Positions 4,796 through 50,180 of a DNA stretch of 64,000 bases are shown piece after piece. The first letter of the stretch is position 1. Every line of letters starts with the position of its first letter. Both the position numbers and the translations under genes were made by a program. A model generated the notes under the pieces. The model saw only the letters and a program-made list of their open reading frames with translations. It searched no databases and was not told the origin of the DNA. Source of the DNA: Planctomycetota bacterium (GTDB taxonomy: Bacteria > Planctomycetota > SZUA-567 > H5-PLA8); assembly GCA_038227875.1 (NCBI GenBank), contig JBBRPR010000049.1:1-64000 (forward strand), read 5' to 3'.

Positions 4796-5181
4796 GATCA
4801 CTCTGCACAGCGACGCCACATGTTTGGTGGTCCTCCTTGACTCACGTGAAAGAATTTTAGCCATCAAGTCTGTGGGCATTTCAGAATAGCGAATGCAATG
4901 CGCAGGAAATCCGCGACGAGGTGGAAGCGAATCGCGAGTAAACGCCAGGTGTTCATCGAGACCTCCGAAGCCGTCTAATCTTACCCAGCGCGCCGCCGAA
5001 ACCTGCGCATTTCAACCTGGACCGTAAAAAGTGAGCTCCTCAAAATCTTCAGTTTGAAATGTGGATTGGACGCAAGCCTATGCTGCGCGGTCGTGACCTG
5101 GATCACTCCACGGTTGCACCACATGTTGGTGGACCTCCGTGACTCCCGTGATAGAAACTTAACCATCGAATCTACAGGGCA
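4796..5181 (+). repeat. degenerate ~82-bp direct repeat (4796-4878 and 5101-5181)
   Basis: gatcactc..ccacatgtttggtggtcctccttgactcacgtgaaagaattttagccatcaagtct..gggca versus gatcactc..ccacatgttggtggacctccgtgactcccgtgatagaaacttaaccatcgaatct..gggca. Confidence 0.85.
4900..5085 (+). pseudogene. frameshifted remnant resembling the C-terminus of a large serine recombinase (copy 1)
   Basis: Fragments QEIRDEVEA, NLTQRAAET and TVKSELLKIFSLKCGLDASLC; 4965-5061 closely matches 21163-21262. Confidence 0.55.
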
Positions 5182-5189
5182 ACGCAGAT

Positions 5190-8100
5190 ATGGCGAACGG
5201 GACCACCGAAAATGTATACGACGCTTCGTTTTACGAGAATTGCTGGAACGAATTATTAAAAGCAAGTCGCGAGTGGCAACATCAGATTGGCGTGGATCAA
5301 CTGCTCTCAAGTGTGTGTAAAAAGGCGCTGGAACTTCTGTCCGCCAAACGATCGGTCGCATTTCTCCTCGACCGCAATGGCCTTCATCCCCGCGCACAGT
5401 GGCCACAATCTCCCGGCGTTCCGATCATGCTGGAAACGGGAGAACTTGAGCTTGCACAAAGCGTTATTCAGGCGGGACGCTCTGCTTTCCTTCATAAAAA
5501 GGACGCGTCACAAGCTCACGTGGTGCTGTGCGCTCCGTTTACCGCGAGCCGTGAAATTCTCGGCGCGTTGTACCTGGAGTTTGCTGAACCGCATCGGCCG
5601 GTCAAGGCAAAAGACCAGCAGTTTGTGGATATGCTTGCGCAGCAGGCGGCCAGTTGCCTTGAACATGCCGTCCTTTACCAGTCCGCGATTACCGACCCAT
5701 TAACTGGCTTGTATTGCCACCGCCATTTTCAACAGGAAGTCGAACAGACTGTTCGTCGTGCCATCCGCAACGAACTTCCACTTACGCTGTTGTTGATGGA
5801 CCTCGATCATTTCAAGGCACTGAATGACAACTGCGGTCATGAGGCGGGCAATCAATGTCTCTTGCGCGTAACCGAGATTTTAAGAAGTACTTTCCGCCGC
5901 ACAGATGTGGTGGCACGTTTCGGCGGCGATGAATTCGAGATTTTGCTTCCGGACACCAAGGCGGGAGACGCGGAATCTGTCGCTGAGAAGGCACGGGAAT
6001 CCATCGCCGCCATCCCGCTTCCGCTAGGACGAAAGGTAAGTGCTACGATCGGCATCGCCTCTTATCCGGAGAATGCGCTCGAGGCCCAAGCTCTCTTTCT
6101 GCGGGCCGATGAGGCGCTATATGCCGCCAAGGAAGCGGGGCGCAATCGCATTGCCAGGGCGCAGGGGACGACTGTTCACGTTTCGGCCACGGGACGCGAC
6201 GCAACGCGTGACCGCGCTCGGAAGCCGGCGGATGCGGAATTTGACTCGACGAAAAAAATCGCGCAGCCAATTTCGCACGTGAACGCGCCGGCCGTGCAAA
6301 TGATCGATGGCCACGTGGTGTTGCGCAAACTCGGCGTCGGAAGCACGGGCGAAATTCTACTCGTCAATCAGCCGGGGCTTGAGCGTGAAGTGGTGCTCAA
6401 ACGTCCGCTTACGCCACATCTTAGTTTTGTTCAGGCACAGGCCTTTGAGCAGGAAGCCCGAACGACAGCTTCGTTGAACCATCCAGGCGTGGTGCCGATC
6501 TTTAACATCGGACGCGATCAGGACAGCCGGCGTTATTACACAATGAAACCGCTGGAAGGTCTTTCGCTTGCGGAGATCCTGGACAGGCGCCGCAAGGGGG
6601 ACATGGACCTGATCCACATTTTTACGAACAGCCGGTTGCTGGAAATTCTCCAACGCGTGTGCGAGACCATCGCGTACGCGCACAAACGCAACGTCCAGCA
6701 TTTGGATCTGACGCCTTCGAACATCATCGTTGGTGAATTTGGAGAGGTAACAGTCATAGACTGGGCCGGCAGTTCATCGCCGGGTGCAGACGCTTCCTCG
6801 GGTGAGGACAAACAATTAAAGGTGATCGGGTCGCCCGCCTACATTGCGCCCGAAATCCTGCGCGGAGGCCCGTCCAGTGCAAGTCCCGCCAGCGATGTTT
6901 TTGCGCTCGGAACGCTCTTCTACCTGCTCCTCACGGACCAGTTACCATTTCAAGGCGCATCGACTTCGGAAACGGTGGAAGCCATTCTGACTGGCAGCGC
7001 CGTCCCGCCGGATTTACTGCTACCCACTGCCGGAATCGACGGATTCCTCTCGTCGATCTGCATGCAAGCCCTCGCGCTTGAACCTTCAAAGCGACTGACG
7101 GCGCAAGGCCTCTCCGAACGGTTGGGCCGTTACGTGCGCCGCGAGATGGATTGGACTATTTTACGTTTTGGCGCCCAAGATCGACCAGTGGATTCGAGCG
7201 AGTGGACGACGCGCGCCGGTAGTTGGAAGCTCCGTGCCGGCGAATGGGTGACATGTGGGCCGGATACCGAATACGTCCTTCTCTGGAATGTTCCCGTGCC
7301 GGGATCATTCCGATTTATTTGTGAAGCGTGGATCGAGCCGGGGGCGGAAGCGACCGGTGAGATCTCATTGATTGGTCATCATGGTCGCAGTCGCGACGCG
7401 CGAAATAGTTTGTATCACGGCTATTTCTTCCAAGTGGGCGCGGAGCAAAATACCGCTGCCAAACTTGCCCGCCATGTGGCGGACACTGTGGTTGCGCCGG
7501 GTTGGACTCTGGTTCCGGGCCGCCGGTACCGCATTGAGCTCGAGTACCAGGACCAGGAAGGATATGTCCACTGCGCGGTCGACGGAAAAAGAATCTTCAG
7601 CTACCGCGAACTCTTCCCCTTTGACGGATCGCTGCTGGGTTTTTACGCGGTAACGGCGGGCACGCATTTTCGGCCGCTGGAAGTGCATCGCCAGAATTGG
7701 AATCTCCAGATTCCAGCGCTGCGCGCGGCGGACCGGCTTTACAGCCAAGGCCATACCAAGGATGCACTCGAGTGCTACCAGGAGATCGCGGTGCGGCAAC
7801 CCGATCGAATGGAGAGCACTGAGGCCACTTTAAAAATCGGCCTTTGCCAGGCCGCGTTAGGTCAGATTGACGCTGCGCGTCAGACGCTTCACAGCCTTGC
7901 GAACACCCATATGGAGCCGTTCGCGTTGGCCGAAGAAGCCATGATTTGCATGAGCGACACGGAGCTTTGTTTTAATATTTTCTCCACGCTCTTTGAAAAG
8001 TTCCCCGACAGTCAGGCGAAGACGCGAGTAATGGATGCCCTCGGGGATCTGCGATCTTTTTTAAATCCTCAGCGTCCGTTGGAGTGGAATATAGCCCGCT

Positions 8101-9113
8101 GGCTGGGAATTTGCCGGTTGGCCACTGCGGGATTTTCCCTGCCGGCGCACAGTCAAATCTATTCTCAGAGCCGAGCCGCTGTCTATCTTACATGGCTGGG
8201 TGAATGGGAAGAAGCACTTCGCACACACTTGGAATTTGGCAAGCGCCTGAACCCGAAGCAGCGTGAGTTAAGCCTCTACTCAGCCCCATTAATCTATCTG
8301 GCGCTGGCGACAGGCAGAGACGACCTAATCAAGAAACCTCTTGACGACGAATTTCGTGGAGCAGGCAACGATTGGTTGACTGGAGTGGCGTTTCATACCG
8401 ATATCCGGAATGGCGATCCCGATAAGGCCCTGAATCGAGTTCACTCGAAGCCCGACGTGGATGCGAACAGGACCTTATTGCTACACCTCGCAAAGAAAGA
8501 TCTCAAGAGCGCGGCTGAATGGCTCCGCCACAAGATACTTGGCAGCTTCAAATCCTACGATGTGTGGCCATTTTATTTTTCCGGTGGCATCGTAGTGGAC
8601 ACTCTGAACTGCGAATTGATCGACCCGTTTGTAGAACAATTTAAGAATCCGGAGCCTGAAATGGCTTTGATGCTTCGATGGCTGCGCGCCCGTTACGCGA
8701 TTTCAACTGCGTCCTTTGAAGAGGCCGCGCAGCATCTGGAGGGGATTGAACCGATCTTGGATGTTCATGCGTATTTCAGAAGTTACCCGCTCCTGCAAGT
8801 ACTCTGTGCGTCATTGGGCACGTTAAAGAATCCATCGCTTGCGGAATTAAATTCCTCGTACGCAACAAGCCTGAGCGGAGTCAACCGCGATCTGGCGGAG
8901 ATGTTTCTGGGACTGCGAGAGCCAGTTCCCAACAAACGCTGGCCTCATCATGCATGGCGCCCGGAATTGCGTCTATGGCTGGCCTTGTGGTTGGAGGCAA
9001 AAGGAAAACCGAAGGAGGCTCACGACGTTGTCGCGCCATCCCGCGATTCACGCTACGGACTTACGCATTGCCAGCCGGCGATTGAACTGCTGCTTGCACG
9101 CACTTCCAAGTGA
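5190..9113 (+). CDS. GAF - GGDEF diguanylate cyclase - Ser/Thr kinase - beta-sandwich - TPR-like fusion protein
   Basis: GAF-like N-terminus, TDPLTGL, DLDHFK..ND..GH, RRTD I-site plus RFGGDEF; then LGVGSTG, VVLKR, HLDLTPSN, IDW, GSPAYIAPE, SDVFALG; helical repeats at the C-terminus. Confidence 0.9.
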   Translation: MANGTTENVYDASFYENCWNELLKASREWQHQIGVDQLLSSVCKKALELLSAKRSVAFLLDRNGLHPRAQWPQSPGVPIMLETGELELAQSVIQAGRSAFLHKKDASQAHVVLCAPFTASREILGALYLEFAEPHRPVKAKDQQFVDMLAQQAASCLEHAVLYQSAITDPLTGLYCHRHFQQEVEQTVRRAIRNELPLTLLLMDLDHFKALNDNCGHEAGNQCLLRVTEILRSTFRRTDVVARFGGDEFEILLPDTKAGDAESVAEKARESIAAIPLPLGRKVSATIGIASYPENALEAQALFLRADEALYAAKEAGRNRIARAQGTTVHVSATGRDATRDRARKPADAEFDSTKKIAQPISHVNAPAVQMIDGHVVLRKLGVGSTGEILLVNQPGLEREVVLKRPLTPHLSFVQAQAFEQEARTTASLNHPGVVPIFNIGRDQDSRRYYTMKPLEGLSLAEILDRRRKGDMDLIHIFTNSRLLEILQRVCETIAYAHKRNVQHLDLTPSNIIVGEFGEVTVIDWAGSSSPGADASSGEDKQLKVIGSPAYIAPEILRGGPSSASPASDVFALGTLFYLLLTDQLPFQGASTSETVEAILTGSAVPPDLLLPTAGIDGFLSSICMQALALEPSKRLTAQGLSERLGRYVRREMDWTILRFGAQDRPVDSSEWTTRAGSWKLRAGEWVTCGPDTEYVLLWNVPVPGSFRFICEAWIEPGAEATGEISLIGHHGRSRDARNSLYHGYFFQVGAEQNTAAKLARHVADTVVAPGWTLVPGRRYRIELEYQDQEGYVHCAVDGKRIFSYRELFPFDGSLLGFYAVTAGTHFRPLEVHRQNWNLQIPALRAADRLYSQGHTKDALECYQEIAVRQPDRMESTEATLKIGLCQAALGQIDAARQTLHSLANTHMEPFALAEEAMICMSDTELCFNIFSTLFEKFPDSQAKTRVMDALGDLRSFLNPQRPLEWNIARWLGICRLATAGFSLPAHSQIYSQSRAAVYLTWLGEWEEALRTHLEFGKRLNPKQRELSLYSAPLIYLALATGRDDLIKKPLDDEFRGAGNDWLTGVAFHTDIRNGDPDKALNRVHSKPDVDANRTLLLHLAKKDLKSAAEWLRHKILGSFKSYDVWPFYFSGGIVVDTLNCELIDPFVEQFKNPEPEMALMLRWLRARYAISTASFEEAAQHLEGIEPILDVHAYFRSYPLLQVLCASLGTLKNPSLAELNSSYATSLSGVNRDLAEMFLGLREPVPNKRWPHHAWRPELRLWLALWLEAKGKPKEAHDVVAPSRDSRYGLTHCQPAIELLLARTSK

Positions 9114-9134: not shown

Positions 9135-10067
9135 CTATTCGCTCAATCCGGCTTCGCGGCTGCGAACGACATATTGCATTGCAGACATTCGCTCCAACCT
9201 GCGGAAAACGCGGCAGAAGTAGATGGGAGAGGCAAATCCGGTTTGGTATGCGACTTCCTTCACGGACGGAAACGACTGAGTCATGAGGAGCTCCTTAGCG
9301 GCTTCAATTCTGGTGTGCAGCAGAAAATCAACGACGCTTTGCCCAAGATATTGCTGAAAGCAACGGCTTAAATGTGCCGGGCTGAGTCCAATTTCCTCTG
9401 CGACCTCTGACAAGGATATCTTCTTATCGTAATTCAGCCGGATGAAGTTGCACGCTCTGCGAACATGAGCCTGTTGCGGCGACGCGTCGCTTGACGACCC
9501 TGCTTTCAAGATGCGTTGCATGATCGCGCGATGCAGTATGGAAATCAAATGCCCGCAGATGAGATGTGTGCTGCGGTTCGATGCGCCACATAGTCTCGAA
9601 CAATCATTGAGCTCAGAACAAAGCTGAATCACACCGTCACGATCCCGCCCCAATTGCATGTGCCTTGGAATGATCCACGACGATTGCTCCGGCGACGATG
9701 CGTAAATCGAATCGGCAGTGGCGTCTTGTGTGGCAAGGTAACCGACGTGCGGATTTTCAAAGAAGCTGAAGTGAATCCAGATCAAGCTCGTGCCAGGGGC
9801 GCTGGGTGCAATGCTGGCCTGATGCAAACCGGGGCCGATGATATGAATCTCCCCACTTCGCAGGCGAAACGGCTCTGCGCCGCCTGGCAAATAGTCGATC
9901 AGCGACAGCTCGCCTTTCAGCACAATGTACGCCACGAAGCAGTTCTTGGCACGCTTTGCCTGTCCGCTTGGAGTTGAAAGATCCATGCGTCCGCTACCCG
10001 TGTGGTGGACGAATGACTGGGGGGAAACCTCATAGGCAAATATAGTTTCCGGCATAAGTCCTCGCAT
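9135..10067 (-). CDS. AraC family transcriptional regulator
   Basis: Cupin-like N-terminus; C-terminal 'ISLSEVAEEIGLSPAHLSRCF...SVKEVAYQTGFASPIYFCRVFRR'. Confidence 0.92.
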   Translation of the reverse strand: MRGLMPETIFAYEVSPQSFVHHTGSGRMDLSTPSGQAKRAKNCFVAYIVLKGELSLIDYLPGGAEPFRLRSGEIHIIGPGLHQASIAPSAPGTSLIWIHFSFFENPHVGYLATQDATADSIYASSPEQSSWIIPRHMQLGRDRDGVIQLCSELNDCSRLCGASNRSTHLICGHLISILHRAIMQRILKAGSSSDASPQQAHVRRACNFIRLNYDKKISLSEVAEEIGLSPAHLSRCFQQYLGQSVVDFLLHTRIEAAKELLMTQSFPSVKEVAYQTGFASPIYFCRVFRRLERMSAMQYVVRSREAGLSE

Positions 10068-10343
10068 CAGCCGCCGGTCAAGTCTTAGCGCTCCAAGAGG
10101 ATCGCGTCAAAATTGTTTTATCACGCGCAGGGTTCGTTTCAGAGTTGAAGATGTCACCAAGTCTCTAATTCAGGTAGATTTTGGGCATCTACCGCGATTT
10201 TGAGAGTCTGTACCTCGGGAAGCGGTTCAGGAATTTGTTGAAAGAAATTTAAAAATCTCAGCCCAAAGGTCCGGTTGCGGACTCACGATGGTGAAGGGCA
10301 GGGAATGGTGTGTTGGGTAACTCAGCTTGAGTTTGGAACGCAA

Positions 10344-11825
10344 ATGGATAAATGTGAGACAATAACCCTCCCGGCGACCCTCTCCATGAGCGATCATCGT
10401 ACAGATGCGGAGTTGCTCCAAGCAATTGCGCAGCACCGGGATAGCGTTGCGTTCAATGAATTGTTCTCCCGGCACCAGGATCGCTGCTATAGCCTGGCCT
10501 ATCATATCCTCCAGAACGTGACGTTCGCAGAAGAGGCGGTTCAGGACGGCATGCTGGCGCTTTGGCAGTCGCCCAAGTGCAATCGTTCAGATGATGATGT
10601 GCAGGCTTGGATTCTGGGGATCGTCGCCGGGAAATGCATGAACGCCCGGCGCGGCAGGAAGCGCCAGTCGCGTCGTGAACAGGCCGTGTGCCGAGATAAC
10701 ATCTCGAACACTCACCAATCCGATCAGGAAGAACGTGGCGAAGCGTTGGAGCAACTCAGGCGGCATATCAAAGAACTGCCTGAACTCGATTCGCAAATTC
10801 TAGCGTGCTGCTTTGGCGCGAATTTGACACATCAGAAAATCAGTGAATTGCTTGGCATTCCCCGCCGAACAATTACCGGACGCATACAGCAGGCCCTCGG
10901 TGAGTTGCGGGTTCGGCTCACAAATAGCGGCATTACGGCGCTCGCGGTCGTGCCCTTGCTGAGTGCTGAATCCATTTACGAGGCATTCACGACCGGTCAT
11001 ACCTGTCCTCCTCTGAATTTCGTTCCGCCCTCCGCGTCGACTGTCCGTTCGCGCCGCGTCTACCCGCGCGCACGGCCGTCCAGCGCACACTTCGCTCTTG
11101 CTGCCGGCGCGTTGGCTGCCGTAATAGCGGTGGCCGCCATGCTGAAAGGCAGTTCACAGCCCAGCGTCTCTCCGTTAAGCCCACCCAAAAATTCTGAGAT
11201 CGTCCTCAAGGACGCCCTCTTAGTCACTCCCAATACTTCCGCTGCGACGCCCACCATCAACCGTCGTTGGGATTTCAGTACCCGGCCTGAGGCTCTGGAC
11301 ATTCAGTGCATCACGGGCAATTGGGAATGGAACTCAATGCCCCGGGGTATGATGAATTCACGAGATGGTCAGAATGTTGTCGTGGTGCTTCCAGTAGCGA
11401 TTCAGCATCAGAACGTAAGATTGACGGTCAAATGGGTCGGAACCGAGGAAAAGTGTAATATCTTCACGTCATGGCTCGACGGTGAGAAGATTGTCGATTT
11501 TGCGTATTGGCATCAAACCACCAGCATCCGCAGCGGGAACGGGAAGCAGACGCTGACGACGAAGGCTATATTCACTCGCAATGAATGTTTGCAGTGGATG
11601 GACGACCGCCTGAATACGCACCGCAAGTATGAAGGCGATTGGCCGGGTGACCATCTGATCCTGCAGTTCACAGACGCAGCAGTGGAATCGATCGCGCTTC
11701 AGTCCATTTCTGACGAAGAAGCGGCGCTTGAATTCAAGAATGCGGCGTCGGACCTCCGCATCCTTCACAGCGTTGACAAGCTTCAGTACAAGGCCCAGAC
11801 GTTGCCGACCGGCGCGCAACACTGA
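10344..11825 (+). CDS. ECF sigma factor with TM segment and C-terminal extension
   Basis: TDAELL, AFNELFSRH, AEEAVQD (sigma2); LPELD...THQKISELLGIPRRTITGRIQQAL (sigma4); hydrophobic FALAAGALAAVIAVAAML; start may be 10344 or 10386. Confidence 0.85.
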   Translation: MDKCETITLPATLSMSDHRTDAELLQAIAQHRDSVAFNELFSRHQDRCYSLAYHILQNVTFAEEAVQDGMLALWQSPKCNRSDDDVQAWILGIVAGKCMNARRGRKRQSRREQAVCRDNISNTHQSDQEERGEALEQLRRHIKELPELDSQILACCFGANLTHQKISELLGIPRRTITGRIQQALGELRVRLTNSGITALAVVPLLSAESIYEAFTTGHTCPPLNFVPPSASTVRSRRVYPRARPSSAHFALAAGALAAVIAVAAMLKGSSQPSVSPLSPPKNSEIVLKDALLVTPNTSAATPTINRRWDFSTRPEALDIQCITGNWEWNSMPRGMMNSRDGQNVVVVLPVAIQHQNVRLTVKWVGTEEKCNIFTSWLDGEKIVDFAYWHQTTSIRSGNGKQTLTTKAIFTRNECLQWMDDRLNTHRKYEGDWPGDHLILQFTDAAVESIALQSISDEEAALEFKNAASDLRILHSVDKLQYKAQTLPTGAQH

Positions 11826-11912
11826 AGTCAACGCATTAACCGTCAACAGAGTCTTTGATGCCGCACCGAGAGGCGCGGATGGTGTCGCATTGTCCCAACG
11901 AAAGGAATCAGC

Positions 11913-12803
11913 ATGCTCTCACTCGAGGACGAAGCGAATCTCGGTACCCAGAGACCGGCCACATTGCGACGACCTTCGGCCGTCTCCCAGATCTTGCGCA
12001 AGATCAGCGAAAATATGGACCTTGATCCCGCAGGTTGGGACGTTTCTTCTGAGGAGGACAGGTCTCAGAGTTTTCGCCTCAGGATTGCCGCCGATCGCAC
12101 CTTGCGAGCGCGAGCCTACGCGCTCGCCCACCGCGTCTATCACGCGTCGGGACTTGTCGCCGGTGATTGTCCAATGGTGGTGTCTCCCTACGATGCCGAT
12201 CCGCAGACATTCACCCTTCTCGTCGAAGACGAACGAGGCGAGGACGCTGCGACCATATCCGTGGTGGTTGATTCACCCGCTGGTCTGCCAGCCGATGAAA
12301 TCTACCGGTCTGAACTCACCGCGGCGCGCGACAAAGGTCGCCTCATGTGCGAGGTCACCCGTCTGGCCATTGCGCCTGAGCACAAGCACTCCCGTCTTTT
12401 GCTCGTGCGACTTTTCAATTTTGTCTACGTCTATGCCCGCCGCATCGTTGGCGCGGATGACTTTATCATTGAGGTCCATCCTCGCCACGCGGCCTACTAT
12501 CACCGTCTGTTGAAATTCGAACCTATCGGTCCGGAAAAGCCCTGCCCTCGCGTACAAAACTCGCTGAGCGTGCTCCTGGGGTTGAAACTCGCCGAATCGG
12601 ACCGGCACATCCGTCTTTATGGCAACAGGCATTCCTTGAGCGCAGTCAAGAAGGATCGTTCACTTTATCCCTCCTTCTACCGGTGGCTGGAGGAAGGTGC
12701 CGTCGCCGAGTTTATAGCGCGACGCCGGCGTCCGATGTCGGACGACGACGTCAACTTCTTTCAATTATCGCGACGCACGTCCAGCACGTTCCCAAGTGAA
12801 TAG
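11913..12803 (+). CDS. FeeM-like N-acyl amino acid synthase (GNAT fold), paralog 1
   Basis: RAYALAHRVY..SGL, ATISVVVDSPAGLPADEIY, CEVTRLA, IEVHPRHAAYYHRLLKF, CPRV motifs; AAGGA RBS. Confidence 0.88.
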   Translation: MLSLEDEANLGTQRPATLRRPSAVSQILRKISENMDLDPAGWDVSSEEDRSQSFRLRIAADRTLRARAYALAHRVYHASGLVAGDCPMVVSPYDADPQTFTLLVEDERGEDAATISVVVDSPAGLPADEIYRSELTAARDKGRLMCEVTRLAIAPEHKHSRLLLVRLFNFVYVYARRIVGADDFIIEVHPRHAAYYHRLLKFEPIGPEKPCPRVQNSLSVLLGLKLAESDRHIRLYGNRHSLSAVKKDRSLYPSFYRWLEEGAVAEFIARRRRPMSDDDVNFFQLSRRTSSTFPSE

Positions 12804-12812
12804 GAGATACGG

Positions 12813-13169
12813 ATGCCAAGCCCGTCCAGCAATGTAGACATCTCGTCTCTCCGTGATGCGCTCGCGCGACTGCCGATTCTCGAACGCGCCGTGCTGGCGC
12901 TGCACTACGGCGGCGGAATGCCAATTGAGGAAATCGCGAAGTCACTCTCGATTCCGCGTCGCGCCATCGCGGATCGCATGCGGCAATCACTGGAGACACT
13001 GCGGCGCGAATGCATCGTCGAACCCAGTAATTTCATCGAAGCGGACCAGATCCGGATAGCCATTTCATCGGGTGCCACGGCGCCTCTGGGCCTGCGCAGT
13101 CAGGTGGAATCGATCGTATCGGCCTTCCATCCGAAACCACGTCGCTGGCTTCCATGGCTGGCTCGATAA
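12813..13169 (+). CDS. stand-alone sigma-70 region 4 (HTH) protein
   Basis: LRDALARLPILERAVLALHYGGGMPIEEIAKSLSIP; no sigma2 region; AGGAGA RBS. Confidence 0.8.
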   Translation: MPSPSSNVDISSLRDALARLPILERAVLALHYGGGMPIEEIAKSLSIPRRAIADRMRQSLETLRRECIVEPSNFIEADQIRIAISSGATAPLGLRSQVESIVSAFHPKPRRWLPWLAR

Positions 13170-13183
13170 GGAGGCAACCCAGA

Positions 13184-14311
13184 ATGCGTTGTTCAAATTG
13201 TCTGCTCCCTGAAGCCGTGCCCGGCGCCGCGATCGACGCTTCCGGAATCTGCGCGGAATGCCGCGCGTATCGCGACTGCGACCCCGCCATTGAAAGTCGC
13301 CAGCGCCAGGAATTCGAAAGGGATTTGGAACAGGCCATTCAATCGACCCGCGGTCGCGCACAGTACGACTGTCTCGCCTGTTTCAGTGGAGGCAAAGACA
13401 GCATCTACATGCTCCATAAACTGAAGAAGTCATACGGCCTGAAGGTGCTTGCCTTCACCTGCGATCTGGATATTCCGCCCGCCGGTTGGGAAAATATCCG
13501 CCGCACGATCCGGGCACTCGATATCGATCATGTGACGTTCCGCCCGCCGATGGAGTTCTACAAAAAATTCTTTCGCTATCTGTTGCGCAACCAGGACGCG
13601 CGCGGTGCGGTACGCTCGGTTTGTTATGTATCAGCTCCGCTGACCGAAGGCTACGCGCTGCGTCTGGCGACGGAAAAGAAGATTCCGCTGATCTTCGCGG
13701 GCTATTCTCCGGGCCAGCCGGATCCGGAATGGATGCTCTATGAAATGCCGCGCACGAAGATCTGCGATTTTGATTGGACGCCGCGTGTGCTTCGCGAGAG
13801 CGGATTGTTTAACGCCACGGAACTCTCGTACTTCTGGAATCCGAACATATTTCCAAAGGGCACACACTTTCCGCGCTATCTCGCACCCTTTCATGCGTGG
13901 GAATACAACCAGGCGGACGTTATCCGCGAGGTTTACGAACTGGGTCTTGTCGGAAAGCGACGCAACGCGAACCCGATCTTCAGCAACAGCCCTTTCCAAT
14001 GGCTGCTTATGCACTCCGATCTGAAGCATCTCGGCTACATGTCCTACGCCCCGGAGTTCTGCAGCCTGATTCGGCGCGGCAAGGCCAGCCGAACACTCTG
14101 GAGCTACGGGTTTCCAATTGTGGATTTCATGTTGCGTCACCGGGTCCTGATGGGCAGGCACGTCACGAATACACTGCGTTGGCTCGAGATGGACGAAACA
14201 GAACTCGCGATCACTCGTCCGACTCCGCCGGACGACTATCAGCATTTTCTAAACGCACGCGCAATGAAAATTGAGGCAGAAAACTGTTCGCTACAGGAGG
14301 TTCTGCGATGA
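13184..14311 (+). CDS. N-type ATP pyrophosphatase (adenine nucleotide alpha-hydrolase; N-acetyl-sugar amidotransferase-like)
   Basis: N-terminal RCSNCLLP...GICAEC, YDCLACFSGGKDS PP-loop; AGGAGG RBS before ATG 13184. Confidence 0.85.
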   Translation: MRCSNCLLPEAVPGAAIDASGICAECRAYRDCDPAIESRQRQEFERDLEQAIQSTRGRAQYDCLACFSGGKDSIYMLHKLKKSYGLKVLAFTCDLDIPPAGWENIRRTIRALDIDHVTFRPPMEFYKKFFRYLLRNQDARGAVRSVCYVSAPLTEGYALRLATEKKIPLIFAGYSPGQPDPEWMLYEMPRTKICDFDWTPRVLRESGLFNATELSYFWNPNIFPKGTHFPRYLAPFHAWEYNQADVIREVYELGLVGKRRNANPIFSNSPFQWLLMHSDLKHLGYMSYAPEFCSLIRRGKASRTLWSYGFPIVDFMLRHRVLMGRHVTNTLRWLEMDETELAITRPTPPDDYQHFLNARAMKIEAENCSLQEVLR

Positions 14312-15153
14312 TTAATCCAAGCGCCCAGTATGCAGCGATGCTCTTCGATCGAACACAACGCCTGGTCGGCCCGGCGACGGTGCAATCTCTGCGCGATTGC
14401 TGCTTCGGCGTTGCGGGATGCGGCGGCGTCGGCGGCGCGGCGGCAATACTGCTCGCGCGAATGGGAGTTGGTCGTTTTGTGCTCGCCGATCCCGGACGAT
14501 TCGATCCTCCCGATGCCAATCGCCAATGGGCGGCGAATTCCGAGTCGATGGGCCAAAACAAATGTGAACAATACGCCCAAATTCTCGCGCAGATCAATCC
14601 CAACATTCACGTGTCCGTCATGCCGGAAGGCGTCAACGCGGCCAACGTCGAGGCGCTGGCATCCGAGGCCGATGTGCTTCTCGACTGTCTCGATGTTTCG
14701 GTGAGCATCGACCTTCGGGCAGCTCTTTATAGACATTGTCGCCGGCGCGGAATCTACTGCCTCAGCGCGCCGGTGCTCGGATTCGGCACGTTGCTCGCCG
14801 CTTCCGATCCCAACGGCATGCCGATGGATGCGTTTATCGAGGTGCTCAAATCCGTGGGCCGCTGCGGCAAGTTGCCCGCGGCATTACGAGGCATCTTCGC
14901 TCCGCTCAGTATGGACGCGATTGAACGCGACCTTCCAACTGGAAGAATTCCATCCTTGGCCATTGGTCCGGCACTCGGCGCAGCCTTCGCCAGCACGGAG
15001 GCCTTGATCGCATTGTCCGGCCGCGAATCGCCGCTCTGGCGACCGCCGCTCTGCTTGCCGCGCATGCTCGCCGTCGACGCCTTGAGTATGAAGTACGAAT
15101 TCGTCGAAATCGCTCAACTCCTGGATGAACAAAAATTGGAGGTCGCCGCATGA
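14308..15153 (+). CDS. ThiF/MoeB/E1-family adenylyltransferase
   Basis: VAGCGGVGG, LARMGVG.F.LAD, ANRQ, GQNK, INP, DVLLDCLD; ATGA-coupled on both sides. Confidence 0.9.
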   Translation: MINPSAQYAAMLFDRTQRLVGPATVQSLRDCCFGVAGCGGVGGAAAILLARMGVGRFVLADPGRFDPPDANRQWAANSESMGQNKCEQYAQILAQINPNIHVSVMPEGVNAANVEALASEADVLLDCLDVSVSIDLRAALYRHCRRRGIYCLSAPVLGFGTLLAASDPNGMPMDAFIEVLKSVGRCGKLPAALRGIFAPLSMDAIERDLPTGRIPSLAIGPALGAAFASTEALIALSGRESPLWRPPLCLPRMLAVDALSMKYEFVEIAQLLDEQKLEVAA

Positions 15154-16418
15154 GTGTTTCAATCCAAACTGATCCGCTGCGCCTCAATCCAGTCTCACCG
15201 CCGGAAGCGCGAGCATCGGCGTTGGCGCACGCTCGGTTTAATACCAATCTCCTGCCACGAGAGGCCGTCGAAATTGACTTGATGACCGATAGCTGGGCGG
15301 AACGAGCCTGGGTTGGATCGCCCCCCGGACTGCGGCAGGCACAGCTTGAGCCGTTCATTCGCAATTTATATGGTCATAAGCATCTGATTTCGGTGCTACA
15401 GGGGCGGATCGCAGAGGCCATCGTCGCTGCCGCACTTTCACGGCCCGGCGCGCGCATTTTAACAAACTCGATTTTCCCGACAGCGCATTTCCATTTGGCA
15501 TCACGCGGTTCCAATCTGCTGGACATTTCCGCAGGACCAGCCAGTCGCAGTTTCGATCCGAATTTTCAAGCCAACTTGGATTTGGAAAAACTCGAAGATC
15601 AACTCGACCCCACTGTCGCATGCGTGTGGATTGAGGCGTGTTCCAACGCATTGTTCGGAGCGCCGGTCTCACTCGAGAATGTGCGCGCAATCCACATGCT
15701 TTGCGCCGTTCGAGGTGTGCCTGTGATCATTGATGCGAGCAGACTGCTCGAAAACGTAATTATGTATTCGGAACACACCGCCAGTCCGAGAAGCCTGGCG
15801 CAGACGCTGGGCGATTACTGCGCGCACGCGGACGTACTTGTGATGAGTGGAACCAAAGACTTCTGCGTGGGGCACGGCGGCTATATTGGTACGAACAACA
15901 GTGAACTCTTCACGAGACTGGCCGACATCGCATTGGCCTTTGGCGCAACCTTGTCATGCGCAGGCGTAATACCCGGTCTGCTTCCCGACAATCCTTTCGA
16001 GCCAGCAAATCAACGCCTTCAGAACGTTCGTGCGCTCCATCGTGAAGTCAAGGATGAAGGGATACTTGCGTGCGAGCACAGCGGCGGGCACGGCGTCTTC
16101 ATCGACGTTCGCCGCATGCTTCCGAAATTTCCTGAAGACGGAAATGCGGTCCAGGCGTTCTTGAATGCGCTGTACAAGCAGTGTGGTGTGCGAGGCACCG
16201 AACACTTTTATTCTATGCAGCAGATTGCCGAACAGAGGCAGATCGTTCGGCTGGCCATTCCCGTTACGCAATTTGATTCGTCCACCCTGCCGTGCATTTC
16301 GCGTGCGCTTGTAAACATTCATCGACAAACTGTGACTGTGCTGCCGCTGAAGGTCACATTCGCCGCAGCGGGCATCGCCGGAAAGTTCAGCGCCCGCTAT
16401 TCAGAGCGCGTGCATTAG
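15150..16418 (+). CDS. divergent tryptophanase/tyrosine phenol-lyase-like PLP enzyme (beta-eliminating lyase family)
   Basis: IDLMTDS, QGRIAE, DASRLLEN, MSGTKD (PLP lysine; compare MSAKKD), GGHGVFID, VRLAIP. Confidence 0.85.
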   Translation: MSVSIQTDPLRLNPVSPPEARASALAHARFNTNLLPREAVEIDLMTDSWAERAWVGSPPGLRQAQLEPFIRNLYGHKHLISVLQGRIAEAIVAAALSRPGARILTNSIFPTAHFHLASRGSNLLDISAGPASRSFDPNFQANLDLEKLEDQLDPTVACVWIEACSNALFGAPVSLENVRAIHMLCAVRGVPVIIDASRLLENVIMYSEHTASPRSLAQTLGDYCAHADVLVMSGTKDFCVGHGGYIGTNNSELFTRLADIALAFGATLSCAGVIPGLLPDNPFEPANQRLQNVRALHREVKDEGILACEHSGGHGVFIDVRRMLPKFPEDGNAVQAFLNALYKQCGVRGTEHFYSMQQIAEQRQIVRLAIPVTQFDSSTLPCISRALVNIHRQTVTVLPLKVTFAAAGIAGKFSARYSERVH

Positions 16419-16429
16419 TGGGAGTGACT

Positions 16430-17533
16430 ATGAGAAATTCGCCAACGATCGCTTCAAGGTGCGTATCCGCGACAGACCTGCGTGAACTCGCCATGGCCGC
16501 TTCACGCGCGCCGTCCGGCGATAATGTTCAGCCCTGGAAATTTATCATCAATGAAGCCGGACGATCATTGGACATTTGTATTGATACCGGTCGCGACAAA
16601 TCTCCGATGAACGCTGCGCAACGCATGTCGCTGATCGCTTGTGGAGCAGCCGTTGAGAATGCGCTCTTACTTGCCGGCCATCGCGGATGGAGTGCAGAAT
16701 TGAAACTCAGCGCCGACAGTTGCGGTATCAATCCCAGTCTCGTCGCACAAGTCGTGCTGGAGAGTTGGTCGGCGCCGTCTGATATGCGCGACTATGCGAC
16801 CGTCATTTCTGCTCGGGTTGCCAATCGTCGCATCTACGATCCGCGACCGGTTTCACCGTTCGTTCTCGAAGACCTTGAACGCTCCACATCCAAAATGTCC
16901 GGGGTCTCGACGCATTGGATTGATGATCGCAACTTGATTGACGCGTTGGCAGACGTGATTGCGCGGGGCGATGCCATCCTGTTCGGAGAACCCTCCATGC
17001 GAGCGGCGATCCTATCCAATATTCGATTTGATCTGCCGCCCAAAGCAGAATCGAATGAAGGCCTGTCGTTGGGGTCCCTGGAAGGCTCGACATTTACGGG
17101 TGTTGCTTTACAAGCACTCAAGCGTCTTCCTCAAAAACTTTTCCAACTCTTGGGGGTCCGTGTGCTCTTCTCCGTGCACACAAGGAAGCTCGTCCGCAGC
17201 GCCTCCGGCCTGTGCGTGGGTGTGGTCGATGGAGAAGCATCAAGCGCCGAGCTTTCAACCGGGAGATCCATGCAGCGCGCATGGCTGGCCCTGACAGAAT
17301 TGGGTTTCGCGTCGCAGCCCATGATGTCACTTGTGGTACTCAATAACGTGCTCCGCCACGGCAACCCAGAATTGATCGCGGCCTTGAGAGTCGCCGGAGC
17401 GGAAGCACTTCTGAACAAGCTTTCCTCCTTGCTGAAAACCGCAGGTGTGAGTGGTCACCCGGCGTTTCTGCTGCGTTTTGGACACGCCGCGGCTCCGAGC
17501 GGCAGGACAGGCCGACGGCCGCTAGTTGCATGA
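16430..17533 (+). CDS. nitroreductase-fold flavin oxidase, paralog 2
   Basis: AASRAPSGDNVQPWKF, NRRIYD, GRSMQRAWLALT, FLLRFGHA..PSGRTGRR; collinear with 492..1631; GGAG RBS before ATG 16430. Confidence 0.88.
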   Translation: MRNSPTIASRCVSATDLRELAMAASRAPSGDNVQPWKFIINEAGRSLDICIDTGRDKSPMNAAQRMSLIACGAAVENALLLAGHRGWSAELKLSADSCGINPSLVAQVVLESWSAPSDMRDYATVISARVANRRIYDPRPVSPFVLEDLERSTSKMSGVSTHWIDDRNLIDALADVIARGDAILFGEPSMRAAILSNIRFDLPPKAESNEGLSLGSLEGSTFTGVALQALKRLPQKLFQLLGVRVLFSVHTRKLVRSASGLCVGVVDGEASSAELSTGRSMQRAWLALTELGFASQPMMSLVVLNNVLRHGNPELIAALRVAGAEALLNKLSSLLKTAGVSGHPAFLLRFGHAAAPSGRTGRRPLVA

Positions 17534-23140: not shown

Positions 23141-25480
23141 ATGGGTCAGACGACGATCATGCGCTCCGTGCGGTCGGTGGTGGATTCCAAACGCATTCTC
23201 GACGTGCTGCTGCGAAATCTCACGACCAAACGCGCAATCACTCCGGAGGACATGGAGACGATCCTCGGCATCACCATCCGCAAAATTGCCGACACGATTT
23301 TCGCTCAGGCCATCACCGTCTTCTCACTCGACAAGGCGACGCAGCGCATCAAATTTCAGAACGTGTATTACTCGCCGAGCCTGTATGGCACGGACATGAC
23401 CAAGAAAAAGATTTTCGAGATGAAGGCCGACGAACTCGAGGCGCTGTCGTTGCCCGTGGGCCAGGGCATCGTCGGACAGGTGATCAAGACCGGGGAACTG
23501 GCGTTCGTCGCGGACGTCAAAAAGGATCCGCGCTTTTTTCACCAGGTCGACCAGGACACGGGCTTCTCCACGCGCACGATGATCGCGGTACCGATGAAAG
23601 TGGGCGACGAAGTGATCGGCTGCATCCAGGTGCTGAATAAGTGCTCGGACAACAAGACCGTCACCCAGTTTTCGCAGGAGGACGTGTACCTGCTTCAGGA
23701 CGTGGCCGCGTATTCGGCGAAGGTGATCCAGCGCGCCAAAGATCCGGCGGTTCCGTTCACCGACCGCGAGTTGGCCAGTTACGTGGCGCGTCTGGCCAAG
23801 GTCGATTTTGTCGAACTCGATGCGAAGTCGGAATTCGACAAGGAACTGCTGCTGGCTCTCGGTGAAGATGTGCTGCGGCGCTACCACATTCTGCCGCTCA
23901 AGAAGCTGACCGACACCACGCTGCGCGCGGCGGTGCACAATCCGATCGACTTTCAGACCATGGGCGATTTTGAAATCGTGACGGGTCTGAAAGTCGCCGA
24001 GAAGGTCGTTGCGTGCAGCAAGGATATTGAGGAGGTGCTCAATACCGTCTTCCCGAAGGCGTCGGAAGTCAGCGAAGTCGCCGCGGCCGTCGAAGAACAG
24101 TATGGCACTCCTGAAGGCGTGGTGGAGGGCGCTGATGAGTACGAAGACGACGAAAATTCAGGCGCGATCGTGAAGCTGGGCAACCGCATTATTGAAGACG
24201 CTTACGTCAAGGGCGCCAGCGACATTCACATCGAACCGTTCGAGCAGAAAGTGCGCGTGCGCTACCGCATCGACGGTGTCCTGAAAGAGCAGATGGACAT
24301 TCCGAAGCAGGCGCATCGCGCGCTGATCAGCCGCATCAAGATCATGAGCGACCTGAACATCTCGGAGCGCCGTCTCCCGCAGGACGGGCGCATTGTCTTC
24401 AAGAAATTCAATTCCAAGTACGACCTCGACCTGCGCGTCTCCACCGCGCCGATGAATCACGGCGAGAAGGTCTGCGCCCGTATTCTCGACAAAACCAAGT
24501 CGACCCTGCCGCTCGATAAGCTCGGCTTCAGCGACTACAACATCAAAATCTATCGCGATCTGATCCAGGTGCCTTATGGCATGATCCTGCACTGCGGTCC
24601 GACGGGATCGGGAAAGTCGATGACGCTTTACGCGGCGCTGAACGAAATTAACACGCCGGAGTGGAACATCTCGACGGCCGAAGACCCGATCGAATACACG
24701 CTGCCGGGCCTCAACCAGATGCAGATGAAGAAGGACATCGGGCTGACCTTCGCCGCGGCGCTGCGCTGTTATCTGCGCCAGGACCCGGACATGATCCTCG
24801 TCGGCGAAATCCGCGACACGGAGACGGCGGAAATCGCGATCGAAGCGGCGCTGACCGGACACGTGCTGTTCTCGACACTGCACACCAACGACGCGCCTTC
24901 GACGATCACGCGCTTCGATGAAATGGGCATCGAGCCGTTCATGATTTCAACCTGCCTGGTGACGATCTGCGCGCAGCGTCTGTTGCGGCGGCTGTGTTCG
25001 TGCAAACAGCCGGACAACCCCACCGACGACGAACGCGCGCTGCTCGAACGGGCTCTGGATGACAAACCTGTCGATAAGCTGATGCGTCCGGTCGGCTGCG
25101 AGAAGTGCGGGAACTCCGGATATAAGGGGCGATTGGGCACGCACGAGTTGCTGAAGAATTCCGACGACCTGCGCGGCATGATCAACCGTAAGGCCACGGT
25201 GGAACAACTTAAACAAGCCGCCCGGGAAGCGGGAATGCGCACACTCTTTGAAGACTTAATGGAGAAGGTGAAGATGGGTCTAACGTCGCTGCCGGAAGCC
25301 ATCGGTACGGCGCGTCCCGACGATTCGCCCAACCCGCAGCGGGCGAAAATGGCCGGGCAGGCTCCCAAGCCCGTGGTCGAAGCCGCCAAGCCGGCGTTCC
25401 TGAAGGCCGCGCCTGCTCAGGCGAAGGAATCTGGAAGTGCATTGGCGGCGATGCTGGGGCTGAATGAGCCGGAGAAGTGA
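23141..25480 (+). CDS. GAF-domain-fused PilB/GspE family secretion/pilus ATPase
   Basis: GAF (GQGIVGQV..DPRF..VDQDTGFSTRTMIAVPM), ASDIHIEP, ERRLPQDGR, Walker A GPTGSGKS, EDPIEY, LRQDPDMILVGEIRD, TLHTND, CSC/CEKC zinc motif. Confidence 0.93.
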   Translation: MGQTTIMRSVRSVVDSKRILDVLLRNLTTKRAITPEDMETILGITIRKIADTIFAQAITVFSLDKATQRIKFQNVYYSPSLYGTDMTKKKIFEMKADELEALSLPVGQGIVGQVIKTGELAFVADVKKDPRFFHQVDQDTGFSTRTMIAVPMKVGDEVIGCIQVLNKCSDNKTVTQFSQEDVYLLQDVAAYSAKVIQRAKDPAVPFTDRELASYVARLAKVDFVELDAKSEFDKELLLALGEDVLRRYHILPLKKLTDTTLRAAVHNPIDFQTMGDFEIVTGLKVAEKVVACSKDIEEVLNTVFPKASEVSEVAAAVEEQYGTPEGVVEGADEYEDDENSGAIVKLGNRIIEDAYVKGASDIHIEPFEQKVRVRYRIDGVLKEQMDIPKQAHRALISRIKIMSDLNISERRLPQDGRIVFKKFNSKYDLDLRVSTAPMNHGEKVCARILDKTKSTLPLDKLGFSDYNIKIYRDLIQVPYGMILHCGPTGSGKSMTLYAALNEINTPEWNISTAEDPIEYTLPGLNQMQMKKDIGLTFAAALRCYLRQDPDMILVGEIRDTETAEIAIEAALTGHVLFSTLHTNDAPSTITRFDEMGIEPFMISTCLVTICAQRLLRRLCSCKQPDNPTDDERALLERALDDKPVDKLMRPVGCEKCGNSGYKGRLGTHELLKNSDDLRGMINRKATVEQLKQAAREAGMRTLFEDLMEKVKMGLTSLPEAIGTARPDDSPNPQRAKMAGQAPKPVVEAAKPAFLKAAPAQAKESGSALAAMLGLNEPEK

Positions 25481-47405: not shown

Positions 47406-47479
47406 GCGGTTGCTCCCTAAAAAAGGTCCGCCCAAGAGACCCGCAGGAGATTGGGTTGCATGCAGAATTTCACATTTTG

Positions 47480-47754
47480 GACCTTCGGGCCACGTGACCC
47501 GAAGGTCTGAATACGTCGGCATAAATTTATGCCGACGTCCGTGTGTTGAACATTCAGGCCCCCGGCCTGAATGTTGAGCATTGCTACAAAATGGACCCGC
47601 ATCCAAAGTCGAAATTTATTGATTAAGATCATACTGGTTAATGACTTGCAATATTTTAATTGGATCTCTTGAGAATTCATGGGCGAAACTTCGTTTGGTT
47701 CGATTGAATTGTGTGGGAAGCGATGGATACCACCCGGTAAATTTACCGGGTGGT
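47480..47754. promoter_or_regulatory. cluster of four palindromes between divergent ECF sigma genes
   Basis: 47480-47507 (near perfect), 47513-47538 (perfect, 26 bp), 47549-47575 (12-bp stem), 47729-47754 (perfect, 26 bp). Confidence 0.75.
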
Positions 47755-49341: not shown

Positions 49342-49365
49342 AACAACACCCATAGGAATTCAATC

Positions 49366-50079
49366 ATGCGCTCAGCCATGGCTGTATCTGGCGTGCCCCG
49401 TCACGTCTTCACAGTTCTGCAAGTGCTCGGAACCGTGGCCATTCTCGTGTGTGTGCCCTCGAACGCAGCCAAAGCGGCCGCGCTTCCGTGCTGGTGGTTG
49501 CTGACGTTTCAGAAACTGCAGCGCTCCGAGCTTTTTTTCTACGCGGTCGCCTGCGCGTTCTTCACGGTGATGGATGTCTTGAGCGTCGGCCACGGCATCT
49601 TTGCGTTTGAACATCCAGATGTGCTCGGTCTGCCATTTTATGAACCGCTGCTCTGGGGCTTTTACATTGTTCACACCCTGCGCGCAGTGCGCGGGCCGGA
49701 GCCGCGTCGCTCGTACCTGCATGCCGGCGTGATTGCCGTCCTATTCTCGGCGGCGTTCAGTGTCATCTCCGACGCGCAGGTGCTGCTCGGCGTCACGAGC
49801 GGACTGTTGCTGGCGGGCCTGATCCTCTTTCACGATCGCGAAGACATCGCGTATGTCGCGTACATGATTTTCCTGGGCGCGGTGTTTGAGTACTCCGGCG
49901 TCTGGAGCCGCCAGTGGAGCTACACCAATCCACCGCTCGGGGGCGTGCCGCCGTGGTTCATCACGCTATGGGGCGGCGTCGGGTTACTGGTGCGCAGACT
50001 CGCCCTGCCGGCCATGGCCGATCTGATCCGGTGGCAACAGCGCAAGCAGGCGGAGCCGGTCGTTGCCGCGTCGCGATGA
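49366..50079 (+). CDS. multi-pass membrane protein of unknown function
   Basis: Seven or more hydrophobic segments; internally repeated 'G.F.F..P..LGLP' / 'W.Y..P..GGVP.W' motifs. Confidence 0.75.
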   Translation: MRSAMAVSGVPRHVFTVLQVLGTVAILVCVPSNAAKAAALPCWWLLTFQKLQRSELFFYAVACAFFTVMDVLSVGHGIFAFEHPDVLGLPFYEPLLWGFYIVHTLRAVRGPEPRRSYLHAGVIAVLFSAAFSVISDAQVLLGVTSGLLLAGLILFHDREDIAYVAYMIFLGAVFEYSGVWSRQWSYTNPPLGGVPPWFITLWGGVGLLVRRLALPAMADLIRWQQRKQAEPVVAASR

Positions 50080-50180
50080 ATTCTCCCCAAATTCAAAGAA
50101 ACAATGGGCGAACGAAGGCCGGGCGAGATTAGTTCCGTGGAAGCCCAGGACATCCCCAAGTCGATAGGGAGAATTCGAAC

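Follow-up and report, generated by a model that had tools for sequence, protein, structure and literature searches.

A sigma factor-linked operon for a putative modified N-acyl amino acid lipid in a planctomycete, with a ThiF-lyase pair and a PP-loop enzyme beside a FeeM-type synthase

The genome of a Planctomycetota bacterium contains a seven-gene operon whose content points to the sigma factor-linked biosynthesis of a modified N-acyl amino acid lipid. The operon lies in the first 64,000 bases of contig C49 (JBBRPR010000049.1), hereafter called the window, which is part of a 9.3 Mb assembly of 176 contigs with a completeness of 88%. It encodes an extracytoplasmic function (ECF) sigma factor, a FeeM-family N-acyl amino acid synthase, a small protein with sigma region 4 only, a PP-loop ATP pyrophosphatase, a ThiF-family adenylating enzyme, a pyridoxal phosphate (PLP) enzyme resembling tyrosine phenol-lyase (TPL), and a nitroreductase-fold flavoprotein. 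The operon is real and its core families are known, while the pairing of ThiF and lyase with FeeM is new. The reading that we favor, and that family assignments and gene context make on balance probable, is that the operon would produce a modified N-acyl amino acid lipid under a linked sigma factor and is one of many paralogous sigma-FeeM modules in this genome.

Gene families were assigned by matches to Pfam and NCBIfam profiles (Table 1). A first-pass annotation of the locus had described seven co-oriented genes with two ATGA overlaps and had assigned an enzyme family to the cluster genes. All open reading frames (ORFs) were recovered on the plus strand at or near the proposed positions, and the profile matches upheld the enzyme identities. 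The ATGA overlaps, each preceded by a GGAGG-like stretch, join the PP-loop and ThiF genes (14308-14311) and the ThiF and TPL-like genes (15150-15153). The remaining junctions measure 87 nucleotides (nt) between sigma and FeeM, 9 nt between FeeM and the region-4 protein, and 11 nt between the TPL-like enzyme and the oxidase. The PP-loop gene starts at 13154, which makes a 16-nt overlap with the region-4 gene, or, probably, at 13184, which leaves a gap of 14 nt. The annotation had also suggested that the genes be sought together elsewhere. The same families occur together again both elsewhere in this genome and in others, and the grouping is therefore not due to chance.

Table 1. Genes of the operon and the candidate promoter block (window coordinates; aa, amino acids)
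Feature	Coordinates	Strand	Profile matches or basis
ECF sigma factor, 493 aa	10344..11825	+	Sigma70_r2 1e-11, r4 1.3e-08, TIGR02937 2.3e-21
FeeM-family N-acyl amino acid synthase, 296 aa	11913..12803	+	PF21926 1.1e-45, residues 68-224
Sigma region-4-only protein, 118 aa	12813..13169	+	Sigma70_r4_2 7.5e-11
PP-loop ATP pyrophosphatase (SGGKDS), N-terminal four-cysteine ribbon	13154 or 13184..14311	+	TIGR03573 WbuX 3e-30
ThiF-family adenylating enzyme, lyase-linked subtype, 281 aa	14308..15153	+	PF00899 4e-33
TPL/tryptophanase-like PLP enzyme, 422 aa	15150..16418	+	Beta_elim_lyase 1.1e-25; PRK13238 1e-54 (below cut-off)
Acg/TrzS-type nitroreductase-fold flavoprotein, 367 aa, predicted desaturase	16430..17533	+	NF005901 Rv1355c family 3.9e-45; Acg 3e-44; PRK14851 2.7e-43
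Candidate promoter block 5' of sigma gene	10250..10292	+	two-sequence alignment with paralogue upstream region (contig C89)

The proposal that an ECF sigma factor heads the operon gained strong support from the other FeeM loci of the genome. Nineteen FeeM matches above the Pfam cut-off were found, among them another in the window at 50181-51041. At 16 of the 19 loci an ECF sigma factor of 479-533 aa is encoded within 1.4 kb on the same strand, upstream of FeeM in 15 cases and downstream at C51. No paired sigma factor was seen at C95, at C105 and at C83, the last of which has about 1 kb of contig on its upstream side. The window sigma factor contains regions 2 and 4 (TIGR02937, 76.1 bits against a cut-off of 42.9), one membrane helix and then an outer beta-sandwich domain of about 220 aa. 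The hydrophobic 19-mer of the helix occupies residues 272-290 of the 516-aa form, which results from the alternative start TTG 10275. All 16 paired sigma factors carry one such 19-mer at residues 243-303, and their mean pairwise identity is 38% in the core versus 18% after the helix. The AlphaFold model of the window's outer domain (predicted local distance difference test score (pLDDT) 88.9, predicted template modeling score (pTM) 0.81) had galectin-like and L-type lectin sandwiches as its best folds in the PDB (1oq1 with E 2.5e-05 and TM-score 0.44, galactocerebrosidase, ERGIC-53). The predicted fold class is clearly a lectin-like beta-sandwich, although the TM-scores are modest. A protein atlas search with the outer domain gave scores of 0.82 or lower and was not usable. 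The predicted regulatory part of this ECF protein is its C-terminal extension of membrane helix and beta-sandwich; no anti-sigma gene was recognized.

The pairing recurs outside this genome. FeeM is present in 13 of the 41 genomes searched (G000 included), with 24 matches in G004, 47 in G021 and 13 in G028. Pairing in the relatives was defined as a sigma gene upstream of FeeM within 2.5 kb on the same strand, the coordinates being compared by hand. Sigma factors of the window type were paired with 14 of the 24 FeeM genes in G004, three of the four in G002 and one of the three in G012. No pairing was found among the FeeM matches of G021 and G028, which belong to another family. Planctomycetal ECF sigma factors that are duplicated and differ in their C-terminal extensions have been described (PMC7671368), and the present set resembles them in its massive duplication, conserved core and fast-diverging extension. 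Among the papers listed by the literature searches, none was found to link ECF sigma factors with N-acyl amino acid synthases, and in PMC7293339 sigma factors are named only in one general sentence.

The paralogous clusters fall into classes according to the genes downstream of FeeM. One class has ThiF, accompanied by an Acg-type oxidase in the window operon, C89, C105 and C13 at 122 kb, and without oxidase in C9, C13 at 110 kb, C17 and C51. The other has a FAD_binding_4 flavoprotein of about 565 aa (C83, C102, C64, C2, and 51031-52737 in the window). Exporter genes of the MacB, ATP-binding cassette (ABC) or HlyD type lie 3' of several clusters. The closest paralogue of the operon is the cluster on C89, with 64% identity for sigma, 63% for FeeM and 44% for the oxidase. 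It encodes a ThiF of the plain type and lacks the PP-loop and TPL-like genes. From this comparison the window operon looks like a module of the C89 type whose ordinary ThiF gave way to a PP-loop gene and a ThiF-lyase cassette.

The ThiF proteins differ accordingly between the two clusters. The ThiFs of C89, C105, C13 at 122 kb and C51 score 358-431 bits among themselves, whereas the window ThiF scores only 65-122 bits against the oxidase-linked ThiFs and ThiF fragments of the genome. Against lyase-linked ThiFs from elsewhere it reaches 149-197 bits (149 for contig C125 of G004, 186 for the ThiF half of a fusion protein on L026). By these scores, it is a lyase-linked subtype and not orthologous to the oxazolone-type ThiFs of the paralogous clusters, against which it scores 80-122 bits. 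Its glycine-rich nucleotide loop, NRQ motif, Lys and LDxxD stretch align with TcdA. The ThiF-nitroreductase fusion models gave better matches (PRK14851 1.2e-35, PRK14852 4.6e-25) than the ThiF, MoeB and TcdA models (about 1e-15 to 1e-22).

Several further features of the paralogous clusters were recorded. Small sigma-like proteins are encoded beside FeeM in five of them, namely at 12813-13169 in the window and at L015:8970-9545, L018:9094-9705, L014:8848-9390 and L010:8807-9304. In their alignment, regions 2 and 4 are both present in two (C88, C67), and region 2 is missing in those of the window, C89 and C64. The three region-2-less proteins consist of region 4 and a short segment, extended in two by a longer tail at the C terminus. 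The small proteins resemble truncated sigma copies, for which a decoy or a second sigma factor are possible roles. Mini membrane proteins of the YgaP-like_TM type (103-112 aa) are encoded just 5' of FeeM at L022:7269-7607 (C15), L019:6035-6346 (C17) and L017:7555-7893 (C105). They stand between sigma and FeeM in C15 and C17, and after the PP-loop gene in C105. At L025 (contig C51) positions 4869-8854 hold FeeM, sigma, a UbiE-like methyltransferase and ThiF, in an order resembling the candidate stieleriacine cluster reported for Stieleria neptunia (PMC12479983). The second sigma-FeeM module in the window (47809-52737) encodes a 510-aa sigma factor, a 237-aa protein without family, FeeM (PF21926 1.3e-43) and a 568-aa FAD_binding_4 flavoprotein, and is followed by a 658-aa trypsin-like protease. 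Just 5' of this module and divergent from it lies a gene for a 1032-aa sigma-domain protein with a weak leucine-rich repeat match (44508-47606, minus strand). At the contig start, positions 492-2761 encode an Acg-type nitroreductase-fold protein, 57% identical to the operon oxidase, and then a MacB/FtsX permease; these genes probably close another FeeM cluster, the rest of which is lost beyond the contig end. A ThiF remnant in the first 491 bases was considered and rejected, the 16-residue resemblance to the ThiF C-terminus being too weak to call.

Acyl-oxazolone and dehydro-N-acyl-amino-acid lipids were recognized only from 2020-2021, in Mycobacterium tuberculosis, marine proteobacteria and planctomycetes. 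[quoted passage not shown] It also defines the acyl-oxazolone pathways of M. tuberculosis, TyzACB (PMC10404671) and TrzAS, in which TrzS (Rv1355c) is a ThiF-oxidase fusion (PMC12856293). The same trio has been proposed for the dehydrotyrosine-containing stieleriacines of Stieleria, a planctomycete, whose clusters encode NasY, methyltransferase, ThiF-family and nitroreductase-family proteins (PMC12479983). The window operon shares three core families with the stieleriacine clusters, but its ThiF is lyase-linked and PP-loop and TPL-like enzymes are inserted. By family it also resembles OxzAB of Pseudoalteromonas rubra and the TyzACB and TrzAS of M. tuberculosis and relatives, with a predicted N-acylation, a ThiF step that consumes ATP and a flavin-based desaturation using O2. 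In contrast to these pathways, it has no ThiF-oxidase fusion, its ThiF is weakly similar to the Rv1355c model (4.7e-11), and it has two additional enzymes as well as a dedicated sigma factor. The words sigma, ECF and tryptophanase do not occur in the available text of PMC12479983.

The operon oxidase matches the Rv1355c/TrzS family model NF005901 over profile positions 371-714, and its gene lies one gene from ThiF. It has four paralogues in the genome, three in FeeM-ThiF clusters and one at the contig start described above. The link to the acyl-oxazolone and dehydro-N-acyl-amino-acid pathways drawn by the first-pass annotation was borne out, as FeeM, ThiF and a TrzS-family oxidase are all present. 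Its description of the locus as the same core plus two extra enzymes had to be corrected, because the ThiF groups apart from the oxazolone-type ThiFs of the paralogous clusters. Whether ThiF and oxidase would group with MoeB, TcdA or Acg proteins instead had been named as a check: ThiF scores better against the fusion models yet groups apart from the oxidase-linked ThiFs of the genome, and the oxidase scores equally well as Acg. The claim of a candidate new system did not hold, since the core is already described in Planctomycetota for the stieleriacine NasY/ThiF/nitroreductase cluster (PMC12479983), and the operon is a variation of a known kind. Nor are the extra enzymes peculiar to this locus; both the TPL-like and the PP-loop enzyme are recurrent FeeM partners in other genomes.

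For the TPL-like enzyme, the association with ThiF was found to extend to fusion proteins. A 757-aa metagenome protein on L026 consists of a ThiF domain (PF00899 3.3e-32) and a beta-eliminating lyase domain (PF01212 2.1e-30). FeeM genes adjoin the fusion on L026 and L027 and lie upstream of it on L029, and an exosortase gene follows on L027. Because these three loci probably represent one population, they were counted as one lineage. A search with the fusion showed that 49 of its best 120 relatives carry both PF00899 and PF01212; these proteins are 683-817 aa long and 40-93% identical, and their named sources are metagenome-assembled genomes of Anaerolineae and Ardenticatenales. The fusion of ThiF and lyase in at least 49 proteins argues for a joint reaction rather than for substrate supply. 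An unfused arrangement occurs on contig C125 of G004, in the order FeeM, B12 radical-SAM enzyme, ThiF (281 aa), TPL-like protein, FAD_binding_4 oxidase and major facilitator superfamily (MFS) transporter. The TPL-like protein of this cluster is 32% identical to that of the window. Of 7999 candidates scored against the window protein, 56 matched at E <=0.001, and just three of these relatives are more than 50% identical, among them proteins with 76% and 54% identity. In 401 sampled genomes of the phylum, no TPL-like match above 36% identity was found outside G000. In the available text of a 2025 review of ThiF-like chemistry (PMC12596934), the terms PLP, pyridoxal and tryptophanase do not occur.

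The best PDB match of the TPL-like protein was the TPL 9j3u (1.9e-42), and chain 9cen, annotated as 'polyketide synthase protein', matched with 1.3e-32. The protein stays below the cut-off in all tyrosine phenol-lyase and tryptophanase family models. In alignment A1 the PLP lysine K236 and residues D195, R86, N166 and R367 are invariant in the window protein and five FeeM-linked relatives. All four canonical tryptophanases in the alignment have the GDE(A/S)YAGS loop, which holds Tyr71 of TPL, and all six FeeM-linked proteins lack it, together with two further segments. Tyr71 and Arg381 of TPL are said to protonate the aromatic leaving group, and TPL-like domains inside leinamycin-type synthases are described as lacking both residues (PMC3870968). 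LnmJ-SH and its kin are cysteine or thiocysteine lyases according to PMC8479088. The FeeM-linked proteins are similar to the LnmJ-SH-type domains in having no counterpart of Tyr71. They differ from these polyketide synthase-embedded domains in being free-standing or fused to ThiF, and their C-S lyase activity is only an inferred one. By this analogy, a TPL-like enzyme without the loop for cleavage of aromatic side chains would most likely be a C-S (or C-O) beta-lyase acting on a cysteine adduct.

The PP-loop enzyme belongs to no Pfam family. Its WbuX match (TIGR03573) covers the N-terminal half only and reached 105.8 bits against a cut-off of 203.2. The family comprises 470 proteins at E <=0.001, of which the best 120 show 54-77% identity; 119 of these 120 have no Pfam domain and most are annotated as hypothetical. 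In an alignment of 44 sequences, C3, C6, C23, C26 and the SGGKDS motif are invariant, and no other cysteine is. The lack of further invariant cysteines beyond the four of the ribbon speaks against a TtuA-type Fe-S thiolase. In the PDB, sequence comparison returned 8wex, an N-acetyl-sugar amidotransferase of Legionella (2.4e-09). The same structure was the full-length Foldseek match of the predicted model (pLDDT 93.7; E 1.4e-13, TM-score 0.62), and tRNA thiolases and YcfA were far behind with query-normalized TM-scores of 0.30-0.36. N-acetyl-sugar amidotransferases convert an N-acyl amide to an amidine. The window protein resembles them (WbuX) in its PP-loop motif, N-terminal cysteine ribbon and full-length fold. 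However, its identity to them is only 19-20%, its neighbors are lipid enzymes and not a sugar pathway, and no glutaminase partner gene lies nearby.

The gene context of the PP-loop family was followed in 14 loci of other phyla (Pseudomonadota, Burkholderiales, Thermodesulfobacteriota, Omnitrophota, Desulfospira and others). In eight of them the gene directly upstream is of the FeeM family, seven recognized by tblastn and L043 by TIGR03694 (5.4e-65), and 5.8 kb upstream in a ninth. In five of the six loci scanned, genes for a FadD11-like acyl-CoA ligase and a thioester-reductase-domain protein lie 3' of the PP-loop gene. The conserved unit of PP-loop, FadD11-like ligase and thioester-reductase protein was seen in L045, L043, L050, L051 and L055, with a FeeM-family gene in L043 and L045. 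XrtA/PEP-CTERM polysaccharide genes adjoin L045, and a PEP-CTERM protein gene follows in L050. The FeeM/PP-loop/ligase/reductase unit of the other phyla looks like a lipid pathway in its own right. The window resembles the loci of the PEP-CTERM/exosortase acyltransferase (TIGR03694) in the order of FeeM-family gene and PP-loop gene, the latter 49-56% identical to its own, but it lacks the acyl-CoA-ligase-like and thioester-reductase-like genes. The window FeeM itself gave no match to TIGR03694 at E <=0.01, and only PRK14852 matched. Within the genome, a PP-loop paralogue with 29% identity heads the cluster on C105, followed by the YgaP-like mini membrane protein, FeeM, ThiF and oxidase.

A mechanism can be proposed in which every step is inferred from homology and gene context. 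The sigma factor of about 500 aa would be tethered by its single helix, with the lectin-like beta-sandwich facing outside. A signal at the outer domain would free or activate the sigma part and thereby turn the operon on. FeeM would join a fatty acyl group and an amino acid to an N-acyl amino acid, which the Acg/TrzS-type flavoprotein may desaturate between C-alpha and C-beta with O2. The ThiF-type enzyme would adenylate the carboxylate. The TPL-like enzyme would act jointly with ThiF (the two are translationally coupled in this operon and fused in other loci) and would most likely cut the C-S bond of a cysteine adduct so that the sulfur stays on the lipid, a step modeled on the TPL-like SH domain of the leinamycin synthase. 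In analogy to the N-acetyl-sugar amidotransferases, the PP-loop enzyme would adenylate an oxygen of the lipid's amide or carboxyl group and so open it to a nitrogen or sulfur nucleophile. Since the inserted elements are independent, recurrent FeeM partners elsewhere, we assume that one N-acyl amino acid is the substrate of all five enzymes. By analogy, the product is likely a desaturated azlactone-like or a thio- or amidino-substituted N-acyl amino acid.

Several observations weigh against this reading. The TPL-like gene is present at only one and the PP-loop gene at only two of the 19 FeeM loci of the genome, and the PP-loop gene and the ThiF-lyase pair occur apart elsewhere (C105; contig C125 of G004). 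Because the ligase and reductase of the exosortase loci are absent from the window, the role of the PP-loop enzyme may differ here. The oxidase scores against Acg (3e-44) and TrzS (3.9e-45) are equal, so that the sequence by itself is no proof of a desaturase. The C-S lyase role is an analogy, and the candidate promoter comes from two sequences. On the regulatory side, no co-diversification of sigma and FeeM was found (Mantel r -0.12, p 0.78 for the core; 0.11, p 0.19 for the outer domain). G004 holds about 70 sigma factors of the window type, and as most of these are not beside FeeM, the sigma family is not dedicated to it.

If the operon were an ordinary Oxz/Tyz/stieleriacine pathway, ThiF would be the cyclase, the TPL-like enzyme would supply or recycle an aromatic amino acid and the PP-loop gene would be unrelated. 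FeeM, ThiF and a TrzS/Acg-type oxidase are indeed all present, the closest cluster, on C89, carries just this set and neither of the two additional genes, and the best solved relatives of the TPL-like protein are true tyrosine phenol-lyases. We nevertheless consider it unlikely, as the window ThiF is of another subtype than those of the plain clusters, the catalytic-tyrosine loop is missing in the TPL-like protein and in all five FeeM-linked relatives, the ThiF-lyase fusion occurs in at least 49 proteins and the PP-loop family follows FeeM genes across phyla. A bolder form of the favored reading, also built on analogy and rather improbable in our view, treats ThiF and lyase as a two-step device for sulfur insertion. 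ThiF would adenylate the lipid carboxylate, cysteine would capture it and the TPL-like enzyme would cleave the C-S bond to leave a thioacid. Activation of the amide by the PP-loop enzyme would then close a ring, giving a thiazolone or imidazolone lipid as an analogue of the oxazolone lipids. The approximately 16 modules would serve as private signal channels, the lipid of each being read by its own membrane sigma factor.

A related proposal concerns the modules as LuxI-LuxR-like pairs of signal and receptor, in which the lectin-like domain of the neighboring sigma factor would sense a diffusible lipid and the genome would hold many private autoinduction channels. The lack of correlation between sigma and FeeM distances and the many G004 sigma factors of the same type away from FeeM argue against it, the gene order fits regulation by an outside cue equally well, and lipid binding by the beta-sandwich is conjecture. 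These points make it a rather slim possibility, even though the pairing is frequent in this genome and seen again in three relatives, the divergence of the outer domains greatly exceeds that of the cores, as it would in specificity determinants, and exporter genes follow several clusters. Stieleriacines are also reported to alter biofilm composition (PMC7293339). Alternatively, the sigma factor could answer envelope damage and the products could be membrane aminolipids rather than secreted small molecules. Such envelope remodeling agrees with the classical response of ECF sigma factors to envelope stress (PMC7826278), but nineteen differently tailored copies are hard to square with a bulk lipid supply and the desaturating and ring-forming enzymes point to reactive small molecules. 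It is therefore regarded as very doubtful.

Under the favored reading, the biosynthesis of a modified N-acyl amino acid lipid, three leads emerge. A membrane sigma factor with an outward sensor domain at 16 loci would offer a way to learn when such lipids are produced. An uncharacterized enzyme pair, with at least 49 fusion proteins in public data, is formed by ThiF and the TPL-like protein, and N-acyl amino acid synthases of several phyla have a very conserved PP-loop enzyme of amidotransferase-like type at their side. These leads could jointly take the known chemistry beyond oxazolones, to relatives that carry sulfur or nitrogen substituents.

The region upstream of the sigma gene was searched for regulatory motifs. 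When it was aligned with that of the closest paralogue on C89, the candidate promoter block of Table 1 was the sole well-conserved stretch, a comparison of two sequences and hence weak. The block overlaps the ORF extension from TTG 10275, which favors ATG 10344 as the true start. An 11-mer common to the two upstream regions occurs once in the window, with 1.25 expected. Scans for sigma-70 consensus promoters (0 sites versus 4.2 expected) and terminators (6 versus 8.5 expected) were uninformative, and exact dyad motifs 5' of the 16 sigma and FeeM genes were no commoner than in shuffles. Gibbs sampling 5' of the sigma genes returned an AT-rich motif of 15.4 bits, compared with 12.1-12.4 in shuffled sequences, but it was weak and aligned inconsistently and was discarded. 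Four DNA sequencing runs contained short low-depth fragments (X2: near-identical, 163-647 nt), none of which spans a gene junction. The sigma genes on C13 (120248), C88, C89 and C102 have near-identical bases at the start codon, (A/T)TACAATGG, in upstream regions that are otherwise diverged.

The flanks of the operon are unrelated to it. Upstream lie a gene for a GAF-GGDEF-kinase-TPR protein (5190-9113) and, on the opposite strand, an AraC regulator (9135-10067), and a gene for a pyrroloquinoline quinone (PQQ) beta-propeller protein begins at 17777. The product of 5190-9113, directly 5' of the locus, is an unusual 1307-aa protein that combines GAF, GGDEF, Ser/Thr kinase and TPR parts. Farther downstream, positions 23141-25480 encode an unusual secretion ATPase of type II/IV that carries a GAF domain at its N terminus.

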